Positions 7,750-58,773 are shown, counted from the first letter of the whole stretch. The stretch: 63,885 bases of DNA, filler included, from Asterionella formosa (GCA_002256025.1; 8 parts of 8 records of this genome joined end to end with filler, not necessarily neighbours in it); one strand, 5' to 3'. Program-made: numbers and translations. Notes: generated by a model not told the origin, from the sequence alone.

Positions 7750-8613
7750 TCAAGTAAACATGATTGCATTTCGGTTTCTTGCAGCAGATTCTTCAAAGTG
7801 TCTTAATGCTGCTGGTACGCACTGTGGGATGATTGTTGGAGGAGCTATCTTTCCACGTCGAGCAGACACATGGAGGTCTAAGAATTCGATCAGTTTGTCC
7901 ACAAACGCACCGGTAGGCCGAAGCAAGGCCTCAATATTATTATGCCCCGCTGCATCGACCCAAAACGGCTTCGCTCGCCATGTTTGAGGCAAAGCGAGGA
8001 AAAGCTCCTCCCCGTGCCAAAAGGGAACGACTTCATCCTGTGTACCGTGAATGATAAAAACGGGGCATCGAATGTACGGTGCATAGTCTATGTTTGGAAA
8101 TCGATCCCCAACCAAGGTAAACCGAAAGTTAAATGCAACACGGTACGCACTGAGCAACGGACTTTGAAGAATCACTCCTCCCACAGGTCTCCCTTCGTTG
8201 GCCGTTTTGGATGCCAAATAGCAGGAAGGCCCAGATCCAAGAGATCGACCGTACAAAACAACTTGTTCCGGCTGAATTCTGCGGACTTCCAACAGATAAC
8301 GGTAGGCAGCTTCAATGTCGGCGTAACAGTTGTCTTCTGTCGGTGTTCCATTTGATTTACCGTACCCTGTATAGTCGTAAGCCATGATATTTACTCTCAA
8401 GACTCTTGCTAAATCATTGAACCAGTCATATATCATGCCTAAATCTTCCGCGTTGCCATGGGAAAACAAGATTGTTACTTGCGCATTCGGTTTCTCGATG
8501 AAAAATGCGGGAACTCGACCTCCTGCAGCTGTATTTAACCAAAAATGTCTGGATGGATGCAGATAGGTAGGAGGTGGAGGCTGAAAAAGCAGCGAGCTAA
8601 TGGCATCACCCAT
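7750..8613 (-). CDS. ABHD17: ABHD17-like alpha/beta hydrolase (depalmitoylase family), 287 aa
   Basis: FSHGNAEDLG, YDYTGYGKSNG, LYGRSLGSGP nucleophile elbow, IIHGTQDEVVP, AGHNNIE; N-terminal MG suggests myristoylation. Confidence 0.92.
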   Translation of the reverse strand: MGDAISSLLFQPPPPTYLHPSRHFWLNTAAGGRVPAFFIEKPNAQVTILFSHGNAEDLGMIYDWFNDLARVLRVNIMAYDYTGYGKSNGTPTEDNCYADIEAAYRYLLEVRRIQPEQVVLYGRSLGSGPSCYLASKTANEGRPVGGVILQSPLLSAYRVAFNFRFTLVGDRFPNIDYAPYIRCPVFIIHGTQDEVVPFWHGEELFLALPQTWRAKPFWVDAAGHNNIEALLRPTGAFVDKLIEFLDLHVSARRGKIAPPTIIPQCVPAALRHFEESAARNRNAIMFT

Positions 8614-9577
8614 TTTCCGTGTTACTCCTTTTCAAAGGTGGATAAAACGATATTGATTTTTTCGTTGTTCCACTTTCTTCCCGTCAAGTAAGCAGTCCCT
8701 CGGTGATTATCTGTATAGGAGATGGAAGGTCAACGTAAAGAAACGCAGAGCGATGAGGAGTTCGTGTGTAAGTTTCGCTGTTCACTAAACCATTTTTGCG
8801 ATTGAATGAAATGCTGTCAGATGCTGCCGTTTGTTTTGTTGTGCTTGCTTCGTACTGTTGTTCGGTGAGGAAGTACCAGGTATCGCTTGTACCTGTTACC
8901 TGGTAACTGGTAGTCTACCTGGGTCTGGGTATACCAGGGTATGGCATATACCACGGTACCAGGTACGAGATATATGTGAATGTTGTAGTAGTCTACCAGT
9001 ACATATATTCGGCACCAATGATATGTACTCCACCTGCAATTCGGAACTGGTTAGGGTGATGTACGGAGTACCAGTATCGGTATACCAGTAATACAATAAT
9101 TCTATCCTTTACTCAGTTTTCTTCGAGTTTGCAAGCAGAACGGCTAATGCCGAGGTTATAAGTAACTGATGGCAAGTTGTGGTCATTTTGCCGAAACTGA
9201 AATTTGGCGCCGGCAGGCAATCAAATTCGACTCCTGTGGTAATATTAATTCAACATTTAGAAATTTTTAATGGTTTCGCCCTGGCACATTAAGTTCAATT
9301 GTGTCTCAAAATCAAATTTTAAAGAATGATTTTCTGAGTCAAGACTCCTTATTGTTTCATACTTTGTACAGAAGTGCAAACAGATGTGGTGCATATGAAC
9401 ATAGATACTGTTAACATGATATTTCTATATGCACATATTTATACAATGAATCAAACAAAAGAAATTTCCCATTACAATTTTGCAGACCAGCATGATGATA
9501 AACAAATGATTTTTAATTTTGTAGAACTGCTTGACAATTTTATTAGTCTCTTAGTCTTAGATAGAGGACAAGAATTG

Positions 9578-11176
9578 CTGAAGGCAATACACGCCCGAGG
9601 TGGTCTCTTGCCTGCGAGTATACATGTCTTCGAGGCTGGGTGGCGCAAGTAGGTTGACCGTATGAGTGGCACCCCCGGTGCTGCGAGAAGGTAAGTACTA
9701 CCCGAATGGCAAGACAAAAGCTTGAGCGGGAATTGCTATAGCAATTTCCATTCCAATCCATTCTGATTGAGTATAATCGCCAGGCTGCTTCAGCACTATC
9801 GACTCCCTCTAGCTGAATATACGTAGCTTCTGATACAAACTTGTAGTAGAAATGTAGCAAAGCGCGTTAGTACAAGAAAAGCATTGCTTGGCGGCAATAT
9901 TGACATCATTGTCAACGACTATACAAATCAACAAATACGATCAACAACGGCACAATACCACATCTTCAATGAGTAGTCATTGATAAATGCACTGGTTCTT
10001 ATGTAGATATATACAATCGAAACAAGACAACAGTGCGGAACAACAAACAACGACGGAAGCGATCAAAACAAAGCATGGAAGCAATCAAATCGGAAAGTCG
10101 ATAAATAGGATCTACAATCCACATTCAGTGTTTCCCTGTTGTACTAACCGATCCGCTTCAACTAGCATAACAAACACCAGGCGATGGGATCAAAGAAAGA
10201 CAAACGTTGCCTATTGCAAGCCCGAATAGAGCAATGGCAGGCAAGATAGCTAGAGTGAGAACTATAATTGTGAGGACGAAATCGGGCATACTGTATGTAA
10301 ATCAATGAATATGTGAACGATATAATTTAACATTCTGGTCTCGTAAAAATTATACCGAGTCTACATACAGAGATAGTATCATAACGTGTTCAAAGTAAGC
10401 GTTAAAGCATAGCTTAAACCATGCATGGTTGTTTTTAGTACCACGTACGTATGTAGACTAGATGAATGCCGGTACCGGCAGAATATCCGTTAAGCATCAT
10501 CACATGCATGACCGGAGCAAAAACTTGCCACCAACATCAGATGTATCAATATCATCGGTCGTCCGACGAGATATGAACGATGCGACTACATGAATTCCTC
10601 GAGAAGACAAGCAATCCAAAAACCAACAACATCCGTTAGACAACGAATCGCTACTGGCGTCATCGTGGAGCTGATTTCGCTTCAAACCGGTCATGATGGA
10701 TGACGATCGGCATGGTGAAAGGTGAATTGCTGGAGTCCACTTTTCAGGAGACGAACAAAAATGAGGTGAAATCTAGATATAAGTTATTAAATTCTGTGTA
10801 GTATATAAAATGGTTTCCTTAAATAGACCCCTTGCCGATTTCGGCAATCCCAGGGCTGGAAAACCGAGGGGCAATTGGCGTCTGTTGTCTTGCCAAAATA
10901 CTAACATATGAAATATACAAAATATATTTTAATGATGGGCAATATCGGACCTTTGGCAATTTTCGAGGTGAAGATAGGAAATATACTTTATATGATGGGC
11001 AATAGTAAGCTAAAATTGACATTTACGATTTATTTGTGGGCAGTAGGTAAGCGAATGACGCGACGATAGCTAGAGCGGGAATTGCCTCAACAATACCATT
11101 CTCAGTGGCTACTTGCATTCTCGTATACATGTGTACTCGCAGGAAAGAGACCACCTCGGGCGTGTATTGCCTTCAG
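9578..11176. mobile_element. ~1.6-kb non-autonomous TIR element (family T)
   Basis: ~56-bp TIRs CTGAAGGCAATACACGCCCGAGGTGGTCTCTT(G/T)CCTGCGAGTA(T/C)ACATGT at 9578 and inverted ending 11176; no coding capacity; inverted copies at 60521-61950 and 29490-30200. Confidence 0.85.
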
Positions 11177-11859
11177 AAAGCAGTGAAACAAATGTTCATG
11201 TGGCTTTAATATTCATTGCAAAATAGCTAAAATAGAAAATTGGTGGAAACAAAGTGGCACTCGACCGCAGCAACAATATCTCCATGATTTAGTGCCAGAT
11301 AAAAACCCGAACTGCCCATGCATAACCTTCGTACTTCAAGTGGACATAAACTACAAGCAACAATTGATTTATGATTCGTGATTTATATGGTAAAATAGGC
11401 GTATCATCATCGTCATGATGTTGCCACTACTACCGGTTCTGGCAAACATCATATTCCAAGAACATAAATACTACATGGAGAACAAATAACAGCACATACC
11501 GGAATATTTGCATTGTATTAGTTCACCAGAATACATATGGTACTAGTAAATATGTATTCAGGAATGTAGAGACTGCATATATTCTACATCTATAAACCGG
11601 CATATATGTTTCCATGCATTTTTAGTCCTTACATAACAATGCATATGCATACTGGCTGGTATGTACCCTTATTGGCGGTTGGTAAACATTTTCTATGGCT
11701 GACTACTCTGTACGCGCTTTGATTGTGGGGTTTTAGTTTCAGGGAATCAGTTTCACCCTAAAATAGGTCTACCACATCGAATTCCAGCATAATAGTGTCA
11801 AAACAATCATGCCACGAATGAAAGATATATATAGTTATCTATATATATATAGAAAGATT

Positions 11860-12000
11860 GAAATTGGCAATTACATTTAAAAAATGTGTTTGTACTTTTT
11901 TCGATTATTGCTTTTGGCCATCTTGAGCAAAGTTGACATGATGCATGAGGATCCTTTTTTCTTGTGACCACCTCTTCTCAACATTCAAACGAAATAGGAT
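11860..12000. repeat. Dispersed repeat fragment shared with ~45062-45200
   Basis: aaattggcaa...tttttcgatt...gagcaaa...gatgcatgagga(t/c)cc...tttttt colinear in both places. Confidence 0.5.
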
Positions 12001-13110
12001 ATAACTGTAGAATCATTGAAAATAGCCTTAAATTAATCGGAATTCACATGCATTATTTTCGATCCTTACGCTGGTACATGCGGGCCAAAAGTATATAGCA
12101 GCCAGTAGCTTCAGTAATTTGTACTGGTCTAGTAGGAATTGCCTTAAAAGAGTACTAGACAAAAGCTATATCTGAGTTTTGGTTACGAAGCTTTAGTTTA
12201 GTACTCGCCAGTATCAAAGGCAGGCTAAAATTCTAGATGCACGTTTGAAGCTCGAAAACTCGGACCACTTGTAGGGAGTACTGGATAGAAAGAAAAAGAA
12301 AGAAACGAGTTTGAGGAAGCACAAAGAAACGTCAGACCCATAATGGGACATGATGACAAACTAAATTCGCGAGCACAAGACAAGAAAGTAGGCACTGGAT
12401 GTGCATAATATCGACTGCTGGCCTCTTCGACTTAAGTAGCCGACCTGGGCCATTGCTCCAGCAATGCTCAATCATGACTCCAGACGTTCGGTCGTCATAC
12501 AGAAGTAATGTTTGTACACCTTTAGTACAGTTGGTTCGAATCGGTCGTCTCTCAATCGATAATTCATGGGAATTCACATGCATTGTCTTCAATACTTACG
12601 CTTGTTGCTTGCTTGTTACAAATATGATATAAGTATTGCATTGTGTCAATGCATATATCACGACAGTAGGATATACCAGTAGGCATTGCGTTGTGTGGAT
12701 GTGGGCTTAACTATGTATGGTACAGTTCATCCACATAGTTTAATAATATGTATATAGAAATAAAAATTCACCGTAATAGTATAACAACGTTAAATATATC
12801 CAGGAGCTCTAGCTACCAAAGTACCCGTAGATAACAAATAACTCGATGGACCTGACTCTTCCTTTATCCCCGCAACAAGCTTGGACTTGATCTCCAAGTA
12901 GCATAGTAGGGCAGGATCCGTATATCGCAACTGTACTAGGATATTGACATTGCATTGTTGTGCTGATGCATGATATATTACCATGCCGTCACTCATTGTT
13001 ATATTGAAGGTTTAACAGCAGCTATCACCTGTTTCATCATGTTGCACGTTTCTCATCATTATGTTAGGTTAACAACAGCGAACACACAGGACGTTATCAT
13101 TATATGTATA

Positions 13111-13326
13111 AAATATTAAATAAATTTTATAGTACGCTATTGTTAAAGAACTCGACATTGTGGAGGTTGTGAAGTCGCACTTGGCCCCCCAGAGGGCCTT
13201 AGACCTCCTGCTTGTTGTCTGCCTCACCACCCAGAACCCAAGGGACTACATAAACAAAGCAGGTGGAGAATGCTCCAATCAAACCCGCAACCTCGGCAGG
13301 TGAGCTAACCAACTAAGCTATTCCCC
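13111..13326 (-). mobile_element. tRNA-Ala-derived SINE-like element, copy 1 (216 bp)
   Basis: Minus strand GGGGAATAGCTTAGTTGG (A box)...GCGGGTTTGATT (B-box-like)...GCATTCTCCA; 17-bp flanking direct repeat ttatcattatatgtata (13094-13110) / ttttcactatatgtata (13327-13343), 15/17 identical; homologous to 16278-16514. Confidence 0.8.
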
Positions 13327-14106
13327 TTTTCACTATATGTATATATCCGATTTGTTTTTCTCTGTTGATCAATTATCGAAATCGGAAAAGGATTTTGGTG
13401 GTACACCAAGCCCTTCACTCATCCACTGTTCAGCCTTATTTTCAAATTGGCTCATTGACAAATTCCAAAAATGTAATGTAATGATGAGGATGAATCAGCA
13501 AGAAGTGAGAAACTTTCCACTTTTACACTTTCCAACCTAATGACAGCGACAAAAGATGGAAAAGCTTCTTAAAGCAGTAGAACAATCTTTTGTGACCTCA
13601 CACAGATCAGATTCATTTGAACTAGTTAATAACTCTCACCATTGCAGAATTTCCTATCCCAAGCAACACTATGGTGGATGACTGACATAGGGCATGATCA
13701 GTGATTTTAGAACTTTTTCTTTCGATTTCAAAATAAATTTTCGACTGTATTACCTTATTAAGGTTGTGCATTAGCAGCAGAGGTGCTTGTCTTAGAGTCA
13801 TGTACTGGAAGAAAATCATAGTATTTTTAACATTAAGAGCTAATGCTCGAAGGAGCGCATAGTATGGTCCCAATGATTCGTTGCATGCCTGCCAGACGAG
13901 ATAGGCCAGGTTTCGATGGAAATAATAATCCTTAAGTAAATCAGAAAAGCGTCACTCTTATTGACCGATGAAGATTTGCAGAATCAGTCTCTGAACACGA
14001 TTCGGATTTGCTGACTGATGAACCTACGTTCCCCAAACCGTCTTCTGGCTTCGTTATAAAAATAGGATTCATCTCTTTCAACGTTTAGAACTTGCTGGCA
14101 ATGACT

Positions 14107-14766
14107 GATGTTTCGATTTGTTTCTATATATTTAACGCTACAGTGTAGTTCTTGTGAGTGGCTGGAGACTCCTGCATCATGCCATCTCCACCTTGACCAT
14201 GTTGAAAATGGAGAATTTCTCCACGATAAAATGAGAATGATACTTTGCAATTGGGTACATATATCCAACACGACATAGATAATACAATTGTCAAACTATT
14301 AATGTAATTGACAACGAAAATTGAAGTCGCCGATGGCCATTTCTTCCTGTAGTTTAGACGATGCACAATTCAAAATGACGAAGTTACGCCGAGATTTAAC
14401 ACTTTCACAGTATGCAACACTCTACACTACTGCAATCTGTAGGTTAAACTAAATTTTTCTCGATTTTTTTAATTCTCCATATAACCATATCAATCATAGA
14501 CCATTGAAATTTTCAATATGTCTCTTTCGTTTAATGTTACTGAACCAGTTGGTGACTAGTACATATGACTAGAAATCTGCTGATAACGACTAGAACTTGC
14601 TGACAACGATAAGAGATTGCTCACTAAGACTAGAAGTTACTGATTGGTGAATTCCATTAATAAATCGTCTTCCAGTTGCTACCAGCTGTAGTAGGTGAAC
14701 ACGATTTCGATGATCAAAGCACGACTTGGATTCAATGATTGATGATTTAACATTATAGAACTTAAC
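14107..14766. repeat. Degenerate dispersed repeat (family R), inverted relative to 19150-19893; fragments at ~13880-13950, ~20220-20350, ~21640-21830, ~25680-25770
   Basis: Colinear reverse-complement similarity, e.g. gtgtagttcttgtg...ctcctgcatcatgcc; internal ~20-bp gactagaa...tgctga tandem units at 14565-14645 and 19345-19455. Confidence 0.75.
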
Positions 14767-14997
14767 TGAAGCGAGTTAGGAATTTAAAGCCAGCCTAGTA
14801 TCTAGTCCGGTAGGCATTGGACGAGTTATTGGGATTGAGTCGAAACTGAGTGAGGGCGCATAAAACGCGCTCTACCGGGCCTTCCAGGTGGGTTTTATTC
14901 TTAGGTAGAATCTTATGAGCTAGCTAGCGGAAATCCCTAGACCACTTACTTTTCTCTTCTAGCCTTCTTGCTAGATAAATTAATTGAAATTCTTTCA
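14767..14997. mobile_element. Possible solo LTR (231 bp)
   Basis: TGAA...TTCA termini; near-duplicated flanks cttaac/attaac; sits where homology of repeat R stops. Confidence 0.4.
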
Positions 14998-16277
14998 ATT
15001 AACACACTGTTTCCTCAATTGCTTATTCCAAAATTATAAGCTTAACAAAATGTTTGCTTTCTATGCATCTTTGCTTCCCCCAAAGTCATTCTAAAAATCT
15101 CTTAGCGAATTTACACTTAACATTTCCATAGAAGTTTTCAATCTTTGATATAGTTAGATAGCTGATTGGCGTGGCAATGCATAATTCAATTTGTTGAATT
15201 ATATTTGACTCCACAATCCTCGTGACTCGAACTTGAAAAATTCTTGACAGCACCACACAGGAAACGAAAATAACTTGTATTGGAATCCAATACAAGGTGA
15301 AAAATAATTTACCAAAACAAAATTGACCTTGTATTGGGTAGCTTCATCGTTAGGGTTGCGAATCCGTGCTTTAGCCGATATAAGGAAATAGGCTCTTTTT
15401 CCCAATACAAGGTTTTTCACGAAATGACCGGATTTTTTCAATACAAGGTATGAATAGTTTACCCGAAATGGGGTTCAATACCCGATACAAGGTTTAACTT
15501 GTATTTTTTTACTATTTCGCATCCACCTTGTATTGGTTAACCAATCAGATCATCAGTTCCAATTGGAGGTATGCCTTGTTTTGGACATGCCCATACAAGG
15601 TGTACCTTGATTTTGACCCAATAAGCAAGTCATTTGCGAATCTCATTATTAAAGTATGAGGATAATCTTTTCAGGCTGGTAGCATAATTCTATATTCTTT
15701 TACCAACATTAATAGTTACTTTGCTACATTACTGACGATTCCTACAGCAATAGATAATTTCAGGAAATGTTTGAATCATCTGTTGGAAATCGAGCCCAAG
15801 CATTGCCATCATCGCAATTCACCAATCATTTACCAATCAATGCGTATTTGAGCTCTCTGAATGATGTTGACAGTGAATCCCTTCAATGACAGAAGCAAGA
15901 GCACAGTTGAGAAATAGCATGCACGAACAATGTAACAACAAAACCTTCACCAACTTGGACTACTTACATCATTTTGCATCAAACAACCGGAGCTGACTGT
16001 TTCCTTTCCAATCACTCAACAATTCACTGATTCATCAATTGCATCGAAAGGAGCATTAAAAGTGAGATGGCGTTTCTGAAGCAATCTTGATCTGAAAAGA
16101 ATCGCGATGATAGTTGAGAAATAACGCACAAGCAAGTTTTTGTTATGTCCAAGAAAATGGCAGGAACGGCATGCTACTATGGCGTGAAACAATTTCAAAA
16201 CAATTTCAATTCCTTTAATATTGCACCTTACCCATGATTGTAAGCATTCCCTGTTCAGCTGAAGACGATGAAACAGT

Positions 16278-16514
16278 CTGGAATGTTTTGATGGTTAGCA
16301 CACCCACTGTGGTGGCGGGTTCGATTCCTGCATTCTCTACCTGTCTTTTTATGTAGTCCCTAAGGTTCCGGGAGGTGCGGCAGACGAAAAGACAGGTCCC
16401 GTTGTACCGTACGGACGAATAAAACCGGTACTAATTGTGTCTATCTAGTTGGTGGGCCCGAGTGCAATTATTGGATAGCTTTAATGTACTATAAAATTTC
16501 ATTGACATTTTTTT
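16278..16514 (+). mobile_element. tRNA-Ala-derived SINE-like element, copy 2 (237 bp)
   Basis: Intact T-arm/B box GCGGGTTCGATTCCTGC then ATTCTCTA; perfect 19-bp TSD ctgaagacgatgaaacagt at 16259-16277 and 16515-16533; shares TGGTTAGC, TATGTAGTCCC, GGCAGAC, AGTGC and GTACTATAAAATTT with copy 1; ends in T7. Confidence 0.82.
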
Positions 16515-17412
16515 CTGAAGACGATGAAACAGTGAGAAATGGTTTCCGCACATCATTGTAAAGGATAAGAAATAACTTGGAGGTATCATTTTTGTTATTT
16601 CAATAAATTGCGTCGACTCAGTGATGATTTGTTCCCTGTATACTGTGCTATAGAATATAGTACAGAATAGTTTTAGGTACAAGATTCATATGCCAGCCAG
16701 ACAAAGAAATTGAAAGTATACATTACTGTATGATCATATGACATAAACCAAAAATGATGGCTTATATGATCAATACGCATTGCAGACCCATAGCCTAGCC
16801 GAATTTTGAAAGTATGCATTAATGAATGATCATATAATTGAAAAAACATTTTTATTTAATCAATATGCATTATTACTTTGATATCGTATGTACATTTGGT
16901 TGACCTTGAATTGCGAAATATTGTCACTTTGTATTGGAAATTTTGACCATGCATAGGGATGAGACTTAGTACTGCCAAAACCCAATACATGGGCAAACTT
17001 TATTGGAAAAAATTGTCACCTTGTATTGGAACTCATGACCTTGGATTGGGATGTGACGTAGTACAGCCAATACCCAATACAGGCGGGGCGACCTTGAATA
17101 GCAAAATGTCACCATCTTGTATTGGGAAATAAAGAGAGCCCATTACAGGGAATACCTTGTATTGGATGATATTCTCATGACAAATAAAGGAACACCTTGA
17201 ATTGGAGTGATACCTGGAGTTGTTTTTCACCTTGTATTGGACTTGACATACCGTCCTTTCGCCAACATTACAAGGTTAACCTTGTATTGGAATGGTATAT
17301 CACCTTGTATTGAAAAAATCAAATGGCCGATATCTTGTATTGGAAAACGTTGCGACGCCCAATACAAGGTATGCCTGGATTTTGAGGACCAAAACCGGTT
17401 GAAAACGTAGTA

Positions 17413-18255
17413 CCAGTAAAAACCTGCATTGACCCCCTGGGAAAATTTTCGAACTGCATTGACCCACTGACGGTATAAAAACACGTTTTGTTATGAAAAA
17501 TCATTCATTTTCTATTTCTTAAGCTCCAGAATGTATCTTGAGCATATACCGGATGGAGTCATACTGTTAGTTCTCAACCGATTTGACGTCGATCTTTCGT
17601 TAATTTAGGTCAAAAGTGGCGATAGGAAAAAAAGTGAAAAGCACAGATTAGTCAAATTTAGAGTTCTCATCTTATATTGTGTACAACGATAGATATAAAT
17701 TTCTCGTGTTTTATGTCTTATCCATAACCTTGTCAATAATAATTCTGTAAATAAAAATTGATGAAACCCGGTGTGGCCATGTAATACCAGTATCTATGTA
17801 GGCAGACCATTATAAGTGGTACGAAGTACATGGTACGTGGTACCTATATGTACCCGTGGCTGGGCACAAAACTGATACATCTATAGTACCAGGAATGGTA
17901 CTGGTACGGTACCGGTACAATGTACCGGTATCACGTATGGAGCATCATGCATTTATGTCTTTTCGCTTTGAACCAAACAGGATAATCCGTGTTCACCAAC
18001 AAATATAAAATTACTCTCAGGTATGTTAAAAATTTCATATACTGCATTGACCCACTGAGACTGAATTTTACGTCTAGATGAATATAAATATCTTCTGAAC
18101 CAGATGTTCAATTTAACTAGGAAATGGATGCTAATGTACCGACGCCTTATGCCATCAATACTTCCGAACAGATTTCAGAGAGAGGTGAGCTAAGTGTTAG
18201 TCGAACTAATCAAACGAATGGGATACAACTGTGGGTCAATGCAGTCTTTTACTGG
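17413..18255. mobile_element. MITE A (843 bp), Tc1/mariner-type TA TSD
   Basis: TA|CCAGTAAAAACCTGCATTGACCC ... GGGTCAATGCAGTCTTTTACTGG|TA; internal ACTGCATTGACCCACTGA repeats at ~17453 and ~18041; diverged partial copy from ~24177. Confidence 0.85.
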
Positions 18256-18257
18256 TA

Positions 18258-18989
18258 CCACTTAAAAACTGTAAGCCACCGTTATTTTGCTCCATCTTCC
18301 GACTAAAAAATATTCAAGTAATATTACAATCGAATCCTGATACAAGTACGAAGTGTATGTTACACGATGCACTCTATTCTACGAATAAGTAATCAGTTTC
18401 GATTCAGTGTATAAAGCCATGAAGATCTAATTTTTTAAAGTCATTAAGATTGTTGCATAGCGGTGGCTTACAGTGTATACTTTTCTATCCATACATGAGT
18501 ATATTTTCCCCCCAAACCGTGATTTTTTTTACTCCGTTTATACTACAGAAATTATTTTCGTATTACTTTACCTTTTTTGCGCGATGCAGTATGCTTTTTG
18601 CGCTTGCATCATCACCGAATTCTTCTGATGCATAATGTATTCGAAAGCAAAATGACTTCGTACACACATTTAATAATACTAAATTAATTCTATGGGAAGA
18701 ATATTAATATTTTTGTCCATATACTTGTGCATGTGTAGAAAAGACGATGCCAGCACAATAGAGTAAACATGAAATTTTCCATTTTTCGCAATTTCGCGTC
18801 GACAGCAACCTTTGGTCCATAAAAAGTAGTTAACAACTTGCTTACACAATGCAACAATACAAGTACGTACGTATTTACTTGCTATATAAATCTGAACAAC
18901 TCCTTTGTCACAATAATTAATGTATCTTCCAAACTAAGTTCAAACCGTGCGTTTACTCCGTTTAGCGGTGGCTTACAGTTTTTAAGTGG
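18258..18989. mobile_element. MITE B (732 bp), Tc1/mariner-type TA TSD
   Basis: Perfect 24-bp TIRs TA|CCACTTAAAAACTGTAAGCCACCG ... CGGTGGCTTACAGTTTTTAAGTGG|TA; internal partial copy at ~18458. Confidence 0.9.
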
Positions 18990-19149
18990 TACCCAAAATG
19001 GGGCGGTACTTTCGTTTCCTGTGTAGTCATGGGGTTACGACATATATACCTGTACCAGGTAGTACTATAGTGGTACCTGGAAGCCTGGAAGGTGCGGTAG
19101 CGCACGTTCTATGCGCACCTTTCACTTTCGACGCATTCCCAAGAGATCG

Positions 19150-19893
19150 TCTCATGCCTGCTGGACGAGATAGACTGGCATTTCAATCCAAACTCTCTTA
19201 AGTAACTTTCTTCAATGTTAAATTAACATTCATTAAATCCAAGTCGTCTTCTGATACTCGAAATCGTGTTCACCTAGTACTCATAGGTAATGGTATTCAG
19301 CAACTGGATGACGGTTTGCTAATGGAATTTACTAATCAATAACTTCTAGTCGTAGTAGTCAGCAGTTTCTGGTCATAGTCAGCAGTTTCTACTTGTAGTC
19401 AGCAGTTTCTACTCGTAGTCAGCAAATTCTCGTCGCCATCATCTGGATTTCTAGTCGCATGTCCATGATCAGCTATCATAAACAAAGAGTTATTTTGAAA
19501 ATGTCAATGTACTATTAATGGACATTACTTAAATAGAGAATCAAACAAAATTTCGTTCGACCGACAGATCACCGTAGTGCAGCGAAAGTGTCAATTCTGT
19601 TTGTACTTTCGTCTTTTTGAATTGTGCATCATCTAAACTACGTAAAGCAATGCGCAATCAGCTTATTCAATTTTCGTTGTCAATATTAGTGTTATTGCAA
19701 TTATTCTTTTCGATTGTATTATTTATGTTATGTTGATATATTTATCGAATAGCGCAGTGTCGTTTTCATTTTCCATGTGAGAAATTCGTTATTTTCGGAA
19801 TGGTTAAACCAGAGACGGCATGATGCAGGATTCTCCAGCTACACACAAGAACTACACTATAGCGTTTAATATACAGAAAGAAATCGCAACCTC
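19150..19893. repeat. Degenerate dispersed repeat (family R), second long copy
   Basis: Reverse complement of 14107-14766 over ~650 bp, plus similarity to 13880-13950. Confidence 0.75.
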
Positions 19894-20407
19894 TAGGCTA
19901 ATTAATTATATACTAGCATTTATAAGGGCTACCTTGTTGGGTACCAGGTACCCTCAAAATATATATCCTATGTAGCTATCACAGTACTATACATCATGTG
20001 ATAGTGATATGTATTATACTGCAACAAGTATGGTAGTATGTATATCGGTACCCCGGTACTAGGCTGTTGCATCTGGAATGATAATGATTGTGACCAAGGA
20101 TATAGATATGACATTACATTTGCTTATCTGTAGTATTCTTGGCAAGGCTATCAGGGGGTAGTGGTTGTGCTTGTTCAAGTAAATACTTCATAGGAATACG
20201 GGTCATTCAGACAATCTATTCTTATTAGCAAATTCTAGTCGTTGTTAGCAAATTCTAGCCGTAGTCAGCAAGTTCTAGTAACGTTTTCCTAAATTACTTA
20301 AGGAATATTATTCTTATGGAAAGCTGGCCTATCTCATCTGGCAGGCATGTGACGGTCCATTGGGTGTGCGTCGAAACTGAAAGATGCACATAGCTTGCGG
20401 TACAACA

Positions 20408-20492
20408 ACCAGATGCAGTTATTTTGCTTAAAAAAAATATTGGATAAAGACAGCTAAATCTCTAGATCACCAAAATTACTGCAACTTGCTGG
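20408..20492. mobile_element. Degenerate ~90-bp mini-MITE (family M)
   Basis: tgcagttattttgcttaaa...ggataaagacagctaaa...caaaattactgcaacttgctgg|ta, colinear with 62421-62516. Confidence 0.6.
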
Positions 20493-20534
20493 TACAGGTA
20501 CCTACCCTGGTACACGCACAAGGGAATGATGCAA

Positions 20535-20760
20535 TGGGCGCGCTTCGAAAAAAAAATATTATATCATGTGTATTATAACATAAATTACTGTACTCATAAC
20601 CCCAAAATTTGGTCAACACAATCACAAATATTATAACAGTTAGAAATAACAGGGCATTATATAAAATTATGTTCATTCATGTATGACTACATATAATTTG
20701 CCGGAATATTTCAAGATTTGCTTGCTTATACCTGAAATGGCCTGCTCTCAGCAAAAAATG
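20535..20760. repeat. ~230-bp repeat, inverted relative to 25197-25426
   Basis: tgggcgcgcttcgaaa...gtactcataacccaaaa...tttcaagatttgc...gaaatggc(c/t)tgctctca in both copies. Confidence 0.75.
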
Positions 20761-21407
20761 TATGCATATATGTGCCTACCAGTACATAAACTCATCAATC
20801 AAACTTAAGGTAGTCTATCTATGTGTTCACCAATGGTTGTCCATTTATGTTGCAATCCTGTCTTCATCCTCATCTGGAAAAAGGATGAAGGGAGGTCAGA
20901 GATGGCATCCCTTCCTTTCCAAGACTTCTTGAATGACAACGACGACATTCAACCACCAAGCAACCGATCTTCTTGTCTTGTTAACCGCTGCAAGCGGTCC
21001 TAAGTAAGATGCTACAATTCGAGCTCAAGTCTTTTTTGACCACATGAAAGATTTTGATTATATTGTTCCCAACACCATCAGTTATAATATCTTAATCTAG
21101 GCATATGCGAAAAATGGAGGTGATAAAACTCTTGGCTCAATTTCAATTTCGTTTAAGAAGCTCACAATGCTGAGGGAGTTTTGCTGGATTCTACTTTTCA
21201 GTGGTGGAATATCGTCTTTTTCATGTTTCGGGATGTGTGGGGCTATGGCGGCAGCAAAGAAAAATGACCAGGAGATCGGAAGAAATATGATGATGGCACA
21301 CTCAGTATGATTGTAGTTGCAACTATCTATAATGCATTGATCATCAGCGTAGCAAAACGGGAGAAATTGATGCTCCTGTAGTACCGTATACTTCATTGTA
21401 CCAGGTA

Positions 21408-22940: not shown

Positions 22941-23465
22941 TCATCCGGCCCATTCGATTCGCTTCAGCTCTTGGAGGATAGCCGCATTGGCAGCGTTGAA
23001 CATCGCTCCGACACAATGGTCCGGTAGTTCGTCGCTCACTTCTCGTGACAGCTTGGAAATTACGGCGGCAACTTCCATGTTGTTGTCGATAAGGCTTGAC
23101 ATGCACACATTTCGTTGCGCCTGTTCTACCTTTCGCCTAATCTTCTTTGAAATCGTCGAGCTACGGTAGTGCGTGTGCAGAGCATCGCGAAGGGCTTGAC
23201 CAACCTTTTCTCGGGCTAATCGGTCTCCCACTTCTCTCCAATGTCCAGAAACTTCGTCCTGTTTGACAAAACCTCCGTTAGGGCTACTAGTTCGGACTGC
23301 ATCAACAATATTTGACACAACAATGGATTTCTCGACTTTGCATGAAGCATCTGCATAAGCATGTAAAAACATTTCCACAATATCTCGAAACTTTCGGTTT
23401 CCGGGGTGTTGAAAGCATTGCTTGCCTCGTCCGCAAATCACATCATCCTCATTCAGACTGTTCAT
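22941..23465 (-). CDS. DUF6824-domain protein (diatom-expanded family), 174 aa
   Basis: DVICGRG..HPGNRKFR...GGFVK...GHWREVGDRLAREKVGQALRD signature. Confidence 0.9.
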   Translation of the reverse strand: MNSLNEDDVICGRGKQCFQHPGNRKFRDIVEMFLHAYADASCKVEKSIVVSNIVDAVRTSSPNGGFVKQDEVSGHWREVGDRLAREKVGQALRDALHTHYRSSTISKKIRRKVEQAQRNVCMSSLIDNNMEVAAVISKLSREVSDELPDHCVGAMFNAANAAILQELKRIEWAG

Positions 23466-24176
23466 GGTTTCGTTGAAATGGTTTTTCTCGCTATTAATAT
23501 GGTAGAGGTTTGTATGGGTTTGGAAAGGAAAATATGGGTAATGGGGCCAATACAGTTTTCATTGTCTCAATTTCTGGGTTGGTTCGGATTGGGTCAAGTG
23601 TGGACACGGTGGTACCGGTATGTATCACATGATATCAACCCATGAGCGGAATAATTACAAGATTTCTCCGAATGCCCCCCCCTGCCTGGAGTTCGATATG
23701 ACCAAAATATGGAAGGCAGAAATCGACGAGTCATAAATCGATCAGCTGAATCTGTGTCCAAATCTGTTGTTATAATTTCAGGTACCTGGTACTAGGTCCT
23801 GGTACCAGGTACCAGTGGTTACTTTCGTACGCACGATCGACTTTGTCTTGGGAAAGGAATACCGTACAGCGTAAGGACCGTACCAGAACAATGAATGCTA
23901 TATAAATCATTCCAGTCCTGGTTTGATCACAAAATCGGACAAACACGAAAACAACGGACCAATTACTTATGAACCAGTACCGGTATGTTAGTACATACTG
24001 GTATATGTGTGTATTGCAGGTCACCAAACAGTACAATTCATTTCTATGTAATGCAGGGCAAGACAAAATCTTTGGATTCTTGTCATCAGGATAGAACAAT
24101 TGTGACCTTTTACATGCCATCAGTTTCACCAGTTTAAAAGTAGGAATCAGGTATACTTTTCAGAGGAAACTGGTAC

Positions 24177-36367: not shown

Positions 36368-37067
36368 GTAGTGACAGTTTACTAGCAGTATTACCTATAC
36401 ACCGGTACCGGTAGTCATGTCTGATATGTACTCCATATCTATCGTCTGTCATAGATTTTTATGTCTCATTTAATTGATAGCTTTGTTTTCCATTTCTTTC
36501 TGGTTTGCCTATGTACCGGTCAGTTTGTTTCTGTTGTTTGTGTAGAGCGCGCAAGGACGAACGAAAGCAACAATGATGCATCATGATGTACCCAAGGTAT
36601 CTACTATGATGGTACCGGCCGTAATACTATACATTTTTCGCGGAATAATAATAAAATGATGCTATGATATAGACCGGTAATACATACGACATTCTCGATA
36701 TCAGTGTGTACAGGCCTTACTAATATATTGCCCCAGAAAACCAGTGTGGTACGCAGATGGACATAAATATATACCGGTATAACATAGAATATAGACTACA
36801 AGTACCAGGTCCCTGTAGTTTACGTCTTGCCAACTACCAGTACCGATACTTACAGTACGTACACAAACTAGACCAGTAATTTATTCTCACCATCTTGCGT
36901 GATGAGCAATGAATGCTTCATGATGCGATCCTCAGGATATACGGTATACCTATACATAAAATATGTACTACCGGTATCCATAAATAGACACACCAGGAAC
37001 GTCAAAGGAAACAAAAGCAATCAATTTGTTATAATCATCATTCCTTGTCATTTGTGTTCCATCAACC

Positions 37068-38054
37068 ATGACAGCATCTACTACTACTGTCCCAACTTCC
37101 TTTGGACGTGGAACAGTTACTATTCAATGTAATAGTAGTAGTATATGTAACAACAATCCAACAACACATTCATTATTAATTGTGACATTGAACCGTCCCA
37201 AGGTCAAGAATGCAATGAACGATCACGTGTATTTAGATTTATTGGATTGTATGGAGTTGGTACTATCCAACAATAACAACTATGCTGGAATACTTTTGAC
37301 AGGAACCGGTGATTACTTTAGCAGTGGTGCAGATTTAACCTCCAGTCATGACGTTGTTGTCACCACAAATGATACTCATGACAACGATACAACAGACACT
37401 ATCAGTACCTTACAACATCGTCCTGCTGGTCAATTTATGAAACAATGGATATCCTTTCCTAAATTAAAATGTGCTGCAGTGAATGGTCCAGCCATTGGGA
37501 TTGCTGTGACATTATTATTTCATTGTGATTTAGTATGGTGTTCAGGAATGGCAACATTTTGGACACCCTTTGCACGTTTGGCATTGGTACCAGAATTATG
37601 TTCCTCAGTTACCATGGTGGAAACTATGGGCATATCCAAAGCCAATGAATTGTTATTATTGGGAAGAAAGATTGATGCAACGACAGCATTGAATTGGAAT
37701 ATTGTAAGTCGTGTTGTGGATATTGCTGATTATACTACTGCTACTACAATTCAGCAGCAGGAGCAGTCCTTGGCCATGATCATGGCACATGACATTACAT
37801 CCAATTTATTATCCTTGGTCCATAGTGATGGCACGATTGCAGTATTTTGTCAATTGATTCGAGGAAAGTCAAGAATGGAGCGATTGCAACGTATTTGTGA
37901 AGAAGAATTAATTGAATTGGACAAGAGAATGATGGCAGGCGAATGTTTGGAAGCTGCTATGCAATTACATCTTGGAAAGAAGAAGAGAAGTGGTACTAGT
38001 ACAACTACTACTACTGATAGTGAGGAACATTTTCATCAGCAGAGCAAGTTGTAA
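37068..38054 (+). CDS. ECI2: Peroxisomal enoyl-CoA delta isomerase (crotonase fold, ECI2-like), 328 aa
   Basis: LNRPKVKNAMN, YFSSGADL, AAVNGPAIGIAVTLLFHCDLV, FWTPFARLALVPE; C-terminal SKL (PTS1). Confidence 0.88.
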   Translation: MTASTTTVPTSFGRGTVTIQCNSSSICNNNPTTHSLLIVTLNRPKVKNAMNDHVYLDLLDCMELVLSNNNNYAGILLTGTGDYFSSGADLTSSHDVVVTTNDTHDNDTTDTISTLQHRPAGQFMKQWISFPKLKCAAVNGPAIGIAVTLLFHCDLVWCSGMATFWTPFARLALVPELCSSVTMVETMGISKANELLLLGRKIDATTALNWNIVSRVVDIADYTTATTIQQQEQSLAMIMAHDITSNLLSLVHSDGTIAVFCQLIRGKSRMERLQRICEEELIELDKRMMAGECLEAAMQLHLGKKKRSGTSTTTTTDSEEHFHQQSKL

Positions 38055-39570: not shown

Positions 39571-41295
39571 TCACATTTCAGAATTTTTATCTGGTCCCCA
39601 TGTTCGTGGTGCACACCTGATGCTCTTAACAGTGGCATTCTCAACATCAGCAACAAATTCAGGTACTTGTCCAGCCTGCAAAGCCTTGAAATACACACCA
39701 ACCTTTGTACCAATAGTCGAACAAAGCTGCGCCCCACCTGTCACAGCCGCATCATAGTGCAAACCACCGTTGAGACGAGAAATTCCACAGCGATCAGCAA
39801 CTTGACTCCATGTATCCCAGGTTAAGGTAAAATTGGCTGCGGGTTTTCCACTTTCGTAGGTAGAAGATCCACTAATGATAGGTACATTTAAAGGTCCACC
39901 TAAAGCAGCCAAAACACTATCGGATCCAGTTAATTCAATCATCCCCTTCGCGAATGCTGTGCAAACGCAAGCGCTTCCAGAAGGGAAGTCGGAGTGGGGC
40001 ATTACACGAACATATCCTTTCCAATCTTTCGCGGGAATCCATCCGGCAATCATTTCTTTGTTTCCCAAATATGAGAAAACCTTTTGACTCCCAAATTTTT
40101 TGTTGACGTATGTGGTTGGACGGACACGATCATGAAATACTTTTTCTTTCCATGCCACAATGACGCTTTCGTAAGCTGCGCCGAAAATGGCAGCATCCAG
40201 TTGGATGAACTCAAAGCTATCCAGACTGATATTTCTTCTCTGAAAGTACTGAACCTCAAGGAGACCAAGAGATGTCAGCTTAGCTAGGGTCGAAATATTC
40301 AACTTCTGCTTTGGTGACATCCGTTAAGTTTGCCATGCGTGCCAAACTTAGCTTGGATGCAGTTACATAATCGAAAGTTGGCGATGGCAAGAAGCGACTA
40401 CAAATGTCGGTGTCCCCGAGGAAGAAGGACTTGGCAGAAGCGCCAATGTGAGGGACAACGTGCCGCTGATTAACGAGGTAACCGTATGCATCCTCAGTCA
40501 AAGGCTCCCAGCATTCCAAATCAGTGCAAGTCCTGGGTGCGTAGGGAATAGGCCTCCAGTCCTCGTAGGGAACAAGATTGTACTCGCGCGACAGCTTGCC
40601 GTCGGCATTCCACCCATCCTTGGCGAAGATGTCGATGGCATCGTCAACAAGCGAACGCGCCAATCCCCAGGGAGTAGTAATATCGGCACAGCTGCGAGTA
40701 GCGCAAATGTTAAGATCTACCTTCCAAGTTTCAGCAAGCCCTGTCAACGCACTTTGGACAGTAGGAACGAATGCTCCAAATCCCCAGAGGGTCGCATATG
40801 CAAGCGTGAGAGTTCTGTGTTGATTATACAAAGACTGACTAAAGATATTGGATGGCTGGCAGCGACGACGCGCTGTGCTGACGCTTGTGCGACCAAACAT
40901 TTCCAAAGCCTGGGGATGGAAGGCTGCTGCTGTTCCATAAACAGACGAAACCGAAGCAAGGAGGAGTCGAAACAAAATCGGGGTTTCATAAACTCCAAAG
41001 CCCGGCTTCACAGCCAACATTTCTGAAATCGTGGTCTGTTAAAGCAGTGGTGCGACAGGAGACAAGTTAGAGCTCGCAACTCGGCTCGACAACTATACAG
41101 AGCGGCATTTTTGCTGTAACATACACCGAAAATGCCCAAAGTCGCTCCATCAAAGTTGTAATCGCTGTAAATCACACCGTTGCTGTCGCCTATTCCAGTG
41201 GGAGTAATGCATTGACCGTTCTGAGCGTGGCCACCACTCAGAAGGATGGACACCAATAAAAATTGAAGGAAGGAAGGATACCGGCAAGTTTTCAT
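39571..41295 (-). pseudogene. Secreted vanadium-dependent haloperoxidase-like gene (DUF6851/PAP2-type) with one intron (41036-41124) and a frameshift at ~40281-40286
   Basis: Signal peptide; GTATGT...CTAAC...AACAG 89-bp phase-0 intron joins IFG|TTISEM; vanadate motifs WKEKVFHDRVRP, HSDFPSGS, SRLNGGLHY; removing 4 nt at TAGCTA gives a 543-aa frame reading EYFDPKLTSLG. Confidence 0.8.
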
Positions 41296-51773: not shown

Positions 51774-52433
51774 GGTGGTCGTAGTGGCTAAATGCTTCGG
51801 CTATCGAGTGACAGATGAAGCATAACCTAATGTAGTTCGATGATAAATTTTGTTTTTAACATTATTAATTAATGAATAATACATACACTTATTTTGTGAG
51901 CTGAATACACATTATAGTAAGTACACCGTATCACTACAATCAATGATCATTTAAAAATACCCGTATATATTATTATGCACCGGTACCTGGTACCAGGTAT
52001 TATCAACTGGAGAACACATACCCGTAGAAAGCGAATGGTGAAGCATCCACATACAAATACCGGTATGGTGAACTGACCAAAATGGAGCGAATGGGACAAA
52101 TCGTGGTCCTACGTCGCCTGGTCTGTGCAGCGTACGCAAAACAGAACTTTTATGGATGAAATTGCAAATGATAGATTTGTCTCCTTCATTTACGGTAACC
52201 TTGCAAGCAATCTGTTCCAATATTCCCAGACTTGGTCCAAAGCAAGTCAGAAAGAGAAAATGGATCATTGGAATTTATTATAACTATCTACCGGTATTCA
52301 AAGGAATGGCTTAGTGGTTTAGCTACCTAAAAGAGTGCAAATGAGATATTACCGGTATTTCCATGAAATCACAACGATCACGCGTGAAATGCATGACGAG
52401 TTGAAACAAGGAGGACTACCGGTAAGCAATAAC

Positions 52434-52864
52434 AAATGATTTAGCGAGTTGAGTACCCTTTTCATGTATATATATATATATATATAAATCAGAACGAAAT
52501 ACCACTGAATACGGTTACCGGTAAATTGCTCCATCAAAGAAATATTAAGTAAAATTTTAAAATGTGATTCACGCTTACCTAGCTAATCGCAAAAACTCAA
52601 ATCAGATATTGAATATACCCCGGTGTAAATATTTGTACTGCTGAAATATATTAATACAACATGCTAACAAGTACCACCAGGTACCAAATGATTTAGCGAG
52701 TTGAGTATCCTTTGTTTGTATCTATGTATGTATATATTTATCGAAATCAGAACGAAATACAGTTGAATACTGTTAAATTGCTTTATCAAAGGTATAATAA
52801 GTAAATTTTGAAATGTGATTCTCGCTTATCCATAGTTAATCGCAAAAACTCAAATCAGATATTA
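52434..52864. repeat. Tandem duplication (~180-bp units, 52434-52610 and 52687-52864)
   Basis: aaatgatttagcgagttgagta...aaatcagaacgaaatac...aatcgcaaaaactcaaatcagatatt twice. Confidence 0.85.
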
Positions 52865-56932: not shown

Positions 56933-57032
56933 NNNNNNNNNNNNNNNNNNNNNNNNNNNNNNNNNNNNNNNNNNNNTTAATTAATTAANNNNNNNNNNNN
57001 NNNNNNNNNNNNNNNNNNNNNNNNNNNNNNNN

Positions 57033-58671: not shown

Positions 58672-58773
58672 NNNNNNNNNNNNNNNNNNNNNNNNNNNNN
58701 NNNNNNNNNNNNNNNTTAATTAATTAANNNNNNNNNNNNNNNNNNNNNNNNNNNNNNNNNNNNNNNNNNNNTC

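Follow-up and report, generated by a model that had tools for sequence, protein, structure and literature searches.

A probable tRNA-derived SINE family of a diatom, with AT/T-rich tails and two subfamilies

The Au-like SINEs of flowering plants are derived from tRNAs and mobilised by RTE-clade LINEs (PMC6007223), and they are the best functional analogue of SINEs that rely on their 3' sequence being recognised. Going by their description in that source, these plant elements are short, carry boxes A and B in a tRNA-derived head, keep a conserved 3'-terminal region, end in a short tail other than poly(A), and lie between target-site duplications; the diatom family reported here resembles them in each respect, with a head that is probably tRNA-derived. 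RTE insertions carry a signature in which the duplication starts with T and a stretch of T lies about 10 nt upstream (PMC6007223). This signature was not evident at the three insertion sites of the diatom family, where the duplication began with T, C, and T/A and none of the three had an upstream T stretch (three sites only), and the host is a diatom rather than a flowering plant.

SINEs have long been held to be missing from most unicellular eukaryotes, a view credited to Kramerov and Vassetzky 2011 (PMC5859163, PMC7466962). Thirteen "putative SINE" copies, 1,454 bp in total, are annotated in Phaeodactylum tricornutum (PMC5859163), and Cyclotella cryptica likewise has "putative SINE" annotations (PMC7466962). 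Like the present family, these are SINE-class sequences in diatom nuclear genomes, but they are labels from automated pipelines that come, in the article text, without anatomy, duplications or a consensus. The P. tricornutum supplement lists coordinates only, so the contrast drawn here goes by the description of the annotations. In the present family a head, a core and a tail can be delimited, and, measured as summed contig depth, it is about two orders of magnitude more abundant than these annotated elements. Our literature search for a described diatom SINE family returned, in the texts retrieved, pipeline-level mentions only. The element type is ordinary, with a tRNA-like promoter region and copy-and-paste spread, and in diatoms it is barely described. 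Elsewhere among stramenopiles, the oomycete Phytophthora infestans has tRNA-related SINEs (infSINE and others); oomycetes are a different class of organisms.

The window analysed here, that is, the whole stretch of 63,885 nt, contains two insertions that very probably belong to a single family of tRNA-derived SINEs, non-coding and non-autonomous, residing in a diatom nuclear genome. The repeat family is real; it is very probably tRNA-derived, has two subfamilies, and carries AT/T-rich tails. An earlier note had located and described both copies, and re-examination of the sequence returned their coordinates and features as first described:

13111..13326, minus strand: SINE copy A, A-type subfamily, 216 nt (likeness to copy B; nhmmer E 2e-58; contig depth)
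16278..16514, plus strand: SINE copy B, B-type subfamily, 237 nt (nhmmer E 2e-73; likeness to L075 and L038; contig depth)

The repeat family and its boundaries are directly established. BLAST aligned the two copies over their first ~120 nt (119-nt alignment, 78.2% identity, E 4.6e-20) and separately over 25-26 nt near the 3' end (84-85% identical, E 0.01-0.04), and detected no similarity across the central ~70-90 nt. The claim that the copies are homologous end to end therefore holds for the 5' ~120 nt and the 25-nt 3' motif, but not for the middles, which are not detectably alike. Since the middles differ, we assigned the two copies to two subfamilies. The order of motifs reported earlier (ATGTAGTCCC, GGCAGAC, AGTGC, GTACTATAAAATTT) was the same in both copies by sequence inspection.

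The family plan begins with a tRNA-like head of ~65 nt that carries A and B boxes and is built from an acceptor-like stem, D and T arms and an anticodon arm that is shortened. A core hairpin around ATGTAGTCCC comes next, and then a body in at least two versions, the A-type (copy A) and the B-type (copy B and the metagenome copies L075 and L038). Both versions share a 3' motif, after which comes an AT-rich tail that varies in length and contains T runs. All elements are short, at 216 nt (copy A), 237 nt (copy B) and ~250 nt (L075), and fall below ~600 bp. No open reading frame of at least 110 aa was found anywhere in 8.6-21.1 kb, and Pfam gave no match for reading frames overlapping the SINE copies. 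The window holds no further copies, as the next best nhmmer match with the family HMM had an E-value of 0.39; weak look-alikes of the head (52303-52329, E 0.04-1.7) and of the tail (19498-19527, E 0.04 to 8) were not significant. The surroundings at 13.8-16.6 kb are packed with other short high-copy repeats.

Each copy had been said to carry its own long target-site duplication. Both duplications were confirmed, that of copy B being perfect (19/19) and that of copy A matching at 15/17 with a 13/14 core:

13094..13110, unstranded: duplication of copy A, 3' side (15/17 match to 13327-13343)
13327..13343, unstranded: duplication of copy A, 5' side (15/17 match; shuffle test)
16259..16277, unstranded: duplication of copy B, 5' side, CTGAAGACGATGAAACAGT (19/19; shuffle test; empty sites)
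16515..16533, unstranded: duplication of copy B, 3' side, CTGAAGACGATGAAACAGT (19/19; shuffle test)

Boundary-anchored repeats this good arose in 0 of 500 shuffled flanks for copy A (13/14 core) and in 0 of 500 for copy B. The flanking repeat of L075 spans 12-13 bp and matches at 11/13 ungapped by eye; scripted comparison gave an 8/9 core, which 15 of 500 shuffles also attained. Variable-length flanking duplications of 12-19 bp are a classical mark of target-primed reverse transcription. The lengths of the duplications vary (19, 17 and ~12-13 bp; n = 3 readable copies), and terminal inverted repeats were absent from all three copies examined; both the variable duplications and this absence are direct observations. 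Together with the A and B boxes in the head, these lengths and the absence of terminal inverted repeats fit a retroposed Pol III-type element, a reading advanced in the earlier note that the sequence features appear to support.

The same observations bear on whether the insertions could be MITEs, or other derivatives of cut-and-paste DNA transposons, with a tRNA-like stretch by chance. MITEs have been reported in diatoms (PMC5859163), and the repeat-filled neighbourhood would suit them. However, none of the three copies has terminal inverted repeats, the duplications are neither fixed nor short and exceed the lengths of cut-and-paste superfamilies, and the length of the 3' tail varies. We consider a DNA-transposon origin extremely improbable.

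Empty sites provided further evidence for the insertion of copy B. Contig joints ran from 16251/16261 to 16537-16539 with 24-34 intervening letters that resemble a single copy-B target. These are related copies of the repeat hosting copy B, without the element, rather than the same locus, and as such they are directly established.

We compared the window with contigs from three DNA runs (X1, X2 and X6) and one RNA run (X17), using matches of at least 80% likeness. Abundance here is summed contig depth rather than copy number, and the runs may hold other organisms. Across the four runs, summed depth over both elements was ~100-560 times that of unique flanks. Unique contigs in X1 had a depth of ~1,000 and the bins flanking copy A summed to 1.7-2.1k, while the element bins reached 396k for copy A (13154-13280) and 567k for copy B (16329-16455). 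The ratio of element to flank was ~200-330 in X2 and ~110-200 in X6. The RNA run resembled the DNA runs (~150-250), with no enrichment beyond them, and its contigs reveal neither the ends nor the strand of transcripts. In each run the element was covered by more than 100 distinct contigs, and a C replaced the T of copy B at 16338 in 112, 91, 65 and 55 contigs of X1, X2, X6 and X17, respectively. The A-type body is also multi-copy: in X2, 11 contigs gave a loose-end consensus at 13207. In all four runs, loose ends before 16292 carried the family 5' consensus GGGGAATGGCTTAG preceded by differing sequence, and homology in other contigs stopped at 5' GGGGAATGG.

We also scanned metagenomes with an 18-letter core pattern having 16 specified bases, which returned at least 119 loci. 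Among the matches listed, two are real relatives: L075, a third full copy that is 78% identical to copy B over 245 nt, and L038, a fourth copy that is cut by its contig end and is 81% identical over 201 nt. Both metagenome copies have unrelated flanks. The other loci among the matches listed were rejected as chance, their blastn rows spanning only 19-29 nt around the pattern. A head pattern had 0 matches in prokaryote genomes and 0 in viral contigs. Thus, multi-contig coverage and two unrelated metagenome loci demonstrate other copies, contrary to the first of the doubts raised at the outset. Nor does homology run past the duplications, the second such doubt, given the single-copy depth of the copy A flanks, the heterogeneous sequence preceding GGGGAATGGCTTAG, and the host repeat without the element.

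These data also address whether the elements might belong to some larger composite repeat or segmental duplication, or be tRNA pseudogenes scattered through the genome, with the direct repeats being incidental. Copy B does lie inside another repeat family, its flanks having ~9x unique depth, and the unlike middles of A and B could be taken the same way. Yet the flanks of copy A sit at single-copy depth, homology in other contigs halts at the 5' GGGG, related host-repeat contigs have one target copy and no element, and L075 has unrelated flanks. Moreover, past the tRNA-like part the elements continue for ~150-190 nt, and their core and tail are conserved. The contig data largely refute a composite or pseudogene origin, which we regard as very improbable.

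Evidence for a probable tRNA ancestry of the SINE family comes from the head, whose motifs and fold are observed directly:

13262..13326, minus strand: tRNA-like head, copy A (sequence and fold)
13309-13320, minus strand: A box of copy A, TAGCTTAGTTGG (box consensus)
13275-13285, minus strand: decayed B box of copy A, GGTTTGATTGG (box consensus)
16278..16343, plus strand: tRNA-like head, copy B (sequence)
16284-16294, plus strand: decayed A box of copy B, TGTTTTGATGG (box consensus)
16318-16328, plus strand: perfect B box of copy B, GGTTCGATTCC (box consensus)

We identified these boxes by the general A- and B-box consensus sequences. The family consensus A box TGGCTTAGTGG, obtained from contig loose ends, and the B box GGTTCGATTCC match those sequences, and the B box is present in copy B and L075 and in part in L038. 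Copy A has an acceptor-like stem (GGGGAAT/ATTCTCC), and the L075 head forms a cloverleaf in its minimum-energy structure. In the folds, the anticodon arm is cut to a stem of 4-5 bp and a loop of 4-6 nt, about 10 nt short. The spacing from A to B box is ~10 nt less than in a normal tRNA, which counts against the tRNA-derived reading, and the fold-energy z-scores of the head were not significant. A functional tRNA gene was ruled out, since ARAGORN called 0 tRNA genes in the window, L075 and L038 and there is no complete cloverleaf with a 7-nt anticodon loop. The negative ARAGORN result also weighs against a tRNA-derived head.

No Rfam family reached its gathering score in the 4.7-kb region or in single copies, which is a further point against it. 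The best weak match was antisense to the Plastid-ycf2 model (E 0.073), which seems to be tRNA-like going by its printed consensus, and others were to mascRNA and to the T arm of tmRNA. Weakly, these matches all point to tRNA-like shapes. The mascRNA model (RF01684) and the SINE head both form a cloverleaf in which the acceptor, D and T arms are present and the anticodon arm is shortened, but a match of 13.5 versus a gathering score of 42.5 bits (E 5.1) amounts to a resemblance in shape rather than membership.

Downstream of the head lies the core hairpin:

13204..13266, minus strand: hairpin around core ATGTAGTCCC, copy A, with the core at 13241-13251 (inverted repeat; MFE fold)
16339..16397, plus strand: hairpin ACCTGTCTTTT / AAAAGACAGGT, 11 bp perfect, copy B, with core ATGTAGTCCC at 16351-16360 (inverted repeat; fold)

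The closing stem of this hairpin had the same topology in the MFE folds of all four copies, and its energy z-scores (-1.37 to +0.65) were not significant. MAFFT placed a paired indel of A and B inconsistently. The 5' arm of the copy B hairpin contains an internal T5 run. Such a run directly follows the head in two of the four copies (B and L038), as well as in 54 contigs of X1 with a loose end following 16350. Its position right after the head raises the possibility of early Pol III termination and is a point against full-length Pol III transcription.

The two subfamilies converge again at the 3' tail:

13122..13135, minus strand: 3' tail motif GTACTATAAAATTT, common to both subfamilies (inverted repeat; BLAST; motif search)
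16486..16514, plus strand: 3' tail of copy B, with GTACTATAAAATTT at 16486-16499, then CATTGACA, and T7 at 16508-16514

The 3' motif reads GGATAGCTTTAAYGTACTATAARATT in B-type copies and GTACTATAAAATTT in both types, the tail of the family is GTACTATAARATT, and copy A ends in ...TTTATTTAATATTT. Both copies had been described as ending in T-rich sequence rather than poly(A). T runs are present and poly(A) is absent, although "T-tailed" is better replaced by an AT-rich tail of variable length containing T runs. An alifold of three B-type 3' halves showed compensatory changes in 0 of 29 pairs of the 3' structure.

For this SINE family we infer Pol III transcription, an RNA intermediate and a partner element. 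RNA polymerase III would start at the internal promoter and probably stop at the T run that closes the tail. An autonomous non-LTR element would then supply a reverse transcriptase and an endonuclease, which would bind the shared 3' motif instead of poly(A). Through target-primed reverse transcription these enzymes would copy the SINE RNA into a staggered nick, leaving the flanking duplications of 12-19 bp. A tail that is T-rich rather than A-rich would imply that the partner is a LINE recognising 3' sequence (RTE-like). Among 46 reading frames across the window that were searched against Pfam, only a Copia-type reverse transcriptase/integrase was recognised; none of them encoded a LINE or any other non-LTR reverse transcriptase.

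Alternatively, the tRNA-like module might be carried by a non-autonomous element moved by an agent other than a LINE, such as a Penelope-like element, a tyrosine-recombinase retroelement or another mechanism, in which case "SINE" would describe the form and not the partner. The window without a LINE, the 3' end that is not poly(A), and the internal T5 run, which argues against simple full-length Pol III transcription, are all in keeping with such a mover. Conversely, the variable duplications bear the classical mark of target-primed reverse transcription, mobilisation of plant SINEs with T-rich tails by RTE-clade LINEs is documented (PMC6007223), and other diatoms have annotated LINEs (PMC7466962). 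On balance, we judge a non-LINE mover unlikely and favor mobilisation by a LINE.

Taken together, this may be the first high-copy SINE family of diatoms with a defined anatomy, numbering some 10^2 copies in order of magnitude. The family would be tRNA-derived, with two subfamilies having the same head and ~25-nt 3' recognition motif but different bodies, and its T-rich rather than A-rich tail would imply an RTE-like, 3'-sequence-recognising partner LINE active in a unicellular stramenopile alga. We advance this combined claim tentatively, with slightly less than even confidence. The finding leaves the understanding of how SINEs work unchanged. That copy B has a perfect 19-bp duplication points to recent insertion in some cases; in natural freshwater populations the family could therefore still be mobile and polymorphic. 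With its head, core and tail, its duplications and empty sites, and an abundance in the hundreds, the family would supply a curated SINE consensus for repeat masking in diatoms. Strains and populations of a bloom-forming freshwater diatom may be studied with presence/absence markers drawn from it, and it may also lead to the non-LTR retrotransposon machinery that is active in diatoms and to their rules for Pol III promoters and terminators.

Re-reading the sequence bore out the earlier note's description of 13094-16533 as two diverged copies of a candidate T-tailed, tRNA-derived SINE family, copy A (13111-13326, minus) and copy B (16278-16514, plus). The short motifs it listed occur in identical order in both, and each copy is bracketed by its own direct repeat:

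Direct repeats around the two copies
13094-13110 and 13327-13343: repeat around copy A, 15/17 matching
16259-16277 and 16515-16533: repeat around copy B, 19 bp, perfect

In a boundary-anchored test, equally good repeats arose in 0/500 shuffled flanks for copy A and 0/500 for copy B. The claim that the copies are homologous end to end stands for the 5' ends (78.2% identity over 119 nt, E = 4.6e-20) and for the 3' ends, which form a second match of 25-26 nt (84-85%, E = 0.01-0.04), but the middle ~70-90 nt had no similarity detectable by alignment. A family HMM found no copies beyond these two within the 63,885-nt window, the next match having an E value of 0.39.

Other genomic copies, which the earlier note had proposed to look for, were found on contigs of public sequencing runs. 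Twenty such runs, mainly freshwater or algal metagenomes, contain some or all of the 3.8 kb around both copies, and contigs from three DNA runs (X1, X2 and X6) and one metatranscriptome run (X17) were placed on it at a likeness of at least 80%. Unique contigs in X1 have a depth of ~1,000 and the bins beside copy A sum to 1.7-2.1k, whereas element bins sum to 396k (13154-13280, copy A) and 567k (16329-16455, copy B). The same bins reach 30k and 49k in X2 against about 150 outside the elements, and 735 and 1,318 in X6 against about 6-7. Summed depth is not copy number, and we take from it only a family size of the order of 10^2 copies. Distinct contigs carrying C instead of copy B's T at 16338 numbered 112, 91, 65 and 55 in X1, X2, X6 and X17, respectively. 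The A-type body, which defines one of two subfamilies, is likewise multi-copy, as the loose-end consensus at 13207 (11 contigs, X2) reproduces the body of copy A.

Homology does not continue past the target-site duplications. Loose ends before 16292 share GGGGAATGGCTTAG in all four runs, and because the sequence preceding it differs, with low agreement, homology stops at the element's 5' end. By contig depth, copy A has single-copy flanks. The sequence around copy B is a different, moderately repeated one, with flanks at ~9 times the unique depth. In contigs of this host repeat, 16251/16261 is connected to 16537-16539 by 24-34 letters resembling a single 19-bp target of copy B; these joints without the element are related empty sites. 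The single-copy flanks of copy A, the empty sites related to copy B and ~150-190 nt of conserved sequence of a non-tRNA kind make a larger composite repeat, or a scatter of tRNA pseudogenes, very unlikely.

The DNA separating and adjoining the two SINE copies (13789-16260 and 16534-16700) is almost all repetitive in the placed runs. It shows distinct high-copy peaks at 13916-14042, 14297-14423, 14551-14677 and 15059-15185; in X1 the peak at 15059-15185 matches the SINE in height (460k summed depth). The peaks belong to further short repeat families, one of which contains copy B. Short-motif arrays of CCAATACAAGG / CCTTGTATTGG, direct and inverted, occupy 15268-15614 and 16900-17170 and include 92-96-nt tandem units (16902-17128). 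Across the 12.5 kb of 8632-21099 there is no stop-to-stop ORF of at least 110 aa in any frame, and 14 shorter ORFs had no Pfam match above threshold. This island, poor in genes and rich in repeats, is bounded by an alpha/beta-hydrolase ORF (7750-8631) on one side and by the next ORFs on the other.

Scanning metagenomes by the core pattern returned at least 119 loci, and two among those listed are true relatives. One, L075, is a full copy with 78% identity to copy B over 245 nt and unrelated flanks. It has its own direct repeat of 12-13 bp (11/13 by eye; the scripted core, 8/9, was reached in 15/500 shuffles). The other, L038, has 81% identity to copy B and is cut by the contig end.

The family 5' end reads GGGGAATGGCTTAGTGGTTAGCAC. 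Within it, TGGCTTAGTGG matches the A-box consensus, TRGCNNAGTGG, and GGTTCGATTCC is a perfect B box in copy B and L075 and, in part, in L038. Copy A has kept its A box (13309-13320) and its B box has decayed; copy B has a perfect B box and a decayed A box. An acceptor stem forms between GGGGAAT and ATTCTCC, and the predicted minimum-energy structure of the L075 head is a cloverleaf in which a 5-bp stem with a 4-nt loop replaces the anticodon arm. The head is ~10 nt shorter than a tRNA, with short A-to-B box spacing. It was not recognised by ARAGORN and had no Rfam match at the gathering threshold; its weak Rfam matches are all tRNA-shaped, comprising the Plastid-ycf2 model (antisense, E = 0.073, with a gap at the expected anticodon region), mascRNA (E = 5.1) and the tmRNA T arm. 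We read the Plastid-ycf2 model as tRNA-like from its printed consensus.

Elsewhere, ~30 nt at 52303-52335 (GGAATGGCTTAGTGGTTTAGCTACCTAAAAGAG) are closely similar to the head consensus and the L075 head before diverging. This match, not significant alone (E = 0.04-1.7), may represent either a piece of the head or what is left of the parent tRNA-like gene. It is surrounded by repeats that contain ACCGGTA and by a pair of direct repeats of ~250 nt (about 52430-52610 and 52680-52860).

Downstream of the head, all four copies share a core hairpin, whose closing stem, ACCTG...CAGGT, encloses the invariant core ATGTAGTCCC:

Core hairpin positions
16339-16397: copy B
13204-13266: copy A
386-447: L075
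18-77: L038

Its 5' arm is the T run after the head and its 3' arm an A run. The stems of copies A and B are distinguished by a paired T/A insertion, which leaves base pairing intact, and hairpin energies did not differ from those of shuffles. A T5 run directly follows the head in copy B, L038 and 54 X1 contigs with a loose end after 16350, and could stop Pol III early. Both subfamilies share the 3' motif GTACTATAAAATTT. After it comes an AT-rich tail, with T runs, of 11, 15 or ~22 nt; copy B ends in T7. Terminal inverted repeats were absent from all three copies examined. The lack of such repeats and the long duplications of variable length all but exclude a MITE.

Protein similarity also places the host among the diatoms: the coding region at 37035-38054 specifies an enoyl-CoA isomerase whose top named relatives come from Epithemia, Mayamaea, Seminavis and Fistulifera (46-49% identity). 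The passages available from earlier diatom papers use SINE only as a pipeline label: 13 copies labelled 'putative SINE', together 1,454 bp, in Phaeodactylum tricornutum, with coordinates alone in the supplement (PMC5859163), SINEs 'identified' in C. cryptica (PMC7466962) and a remark on GC content in Pleurosigma (PMC12803021). In searches of full-text literature, we found no diatom SINE family described with its anatomy. The present family is well supported and probably uncatalogued.

Pfam scans of ORFs found no LINE within the window, the sole reverse transcriptase being of Copia type:

Other Pfam-scanned features of the window
55449-58715, minus: Copia-type LTR retrotransposon fragment
56985-58715, minus: ORF with RVT_2 (E = 8e-37), retroviral SH3-like domain and integrase core
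55452-56753: ORFs adjoining the Copia-type ORF, no Pfam match
22944-23558 and 39574-41038, minus: ORFs with DUF6824 (E = 1e-26), VCPO second helical-bundle domain (E = 2e-20) and DUF6851

The VCPO and DUF6851 ORFs are adjacent and could be exons of a single vanadium-haloperoxidase-like gene.

Plant Au-like SINEs combine a tRNA-type head and boxes A and B with a conserved 3' region common to RTE-clade LINEs, and are the closest functional analogue found (PMC6007223). Their insertion signature, as given there, is not evident at three sites of the diatom family, too few to judge. A partner from outside the LINEs, for instance a Penelope-like element, seems improbable, if less so than the composite repeat or the MITE.

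With its DNA-level hallmarks observed, the family is best read as a tRNA-derived SINE, for which we infer both transcription and a partner. Transcription would start at the internal Pol III promoter, and an autonomous retroelement would recognise the 3' motif common to both subfamilies; the 12-19 bp duplications would then arise by target-primed reverse transcription. The T5 run after the head, the short box spacing and the lack of a LINE in the window speak against this reading or are left unexplained by it. Copy B's A box has decayed, yet its 19-bp duplication is perfect; therefore, much of its ~20% distance to other copies may be subfamily difference rather than post-insertion decay.
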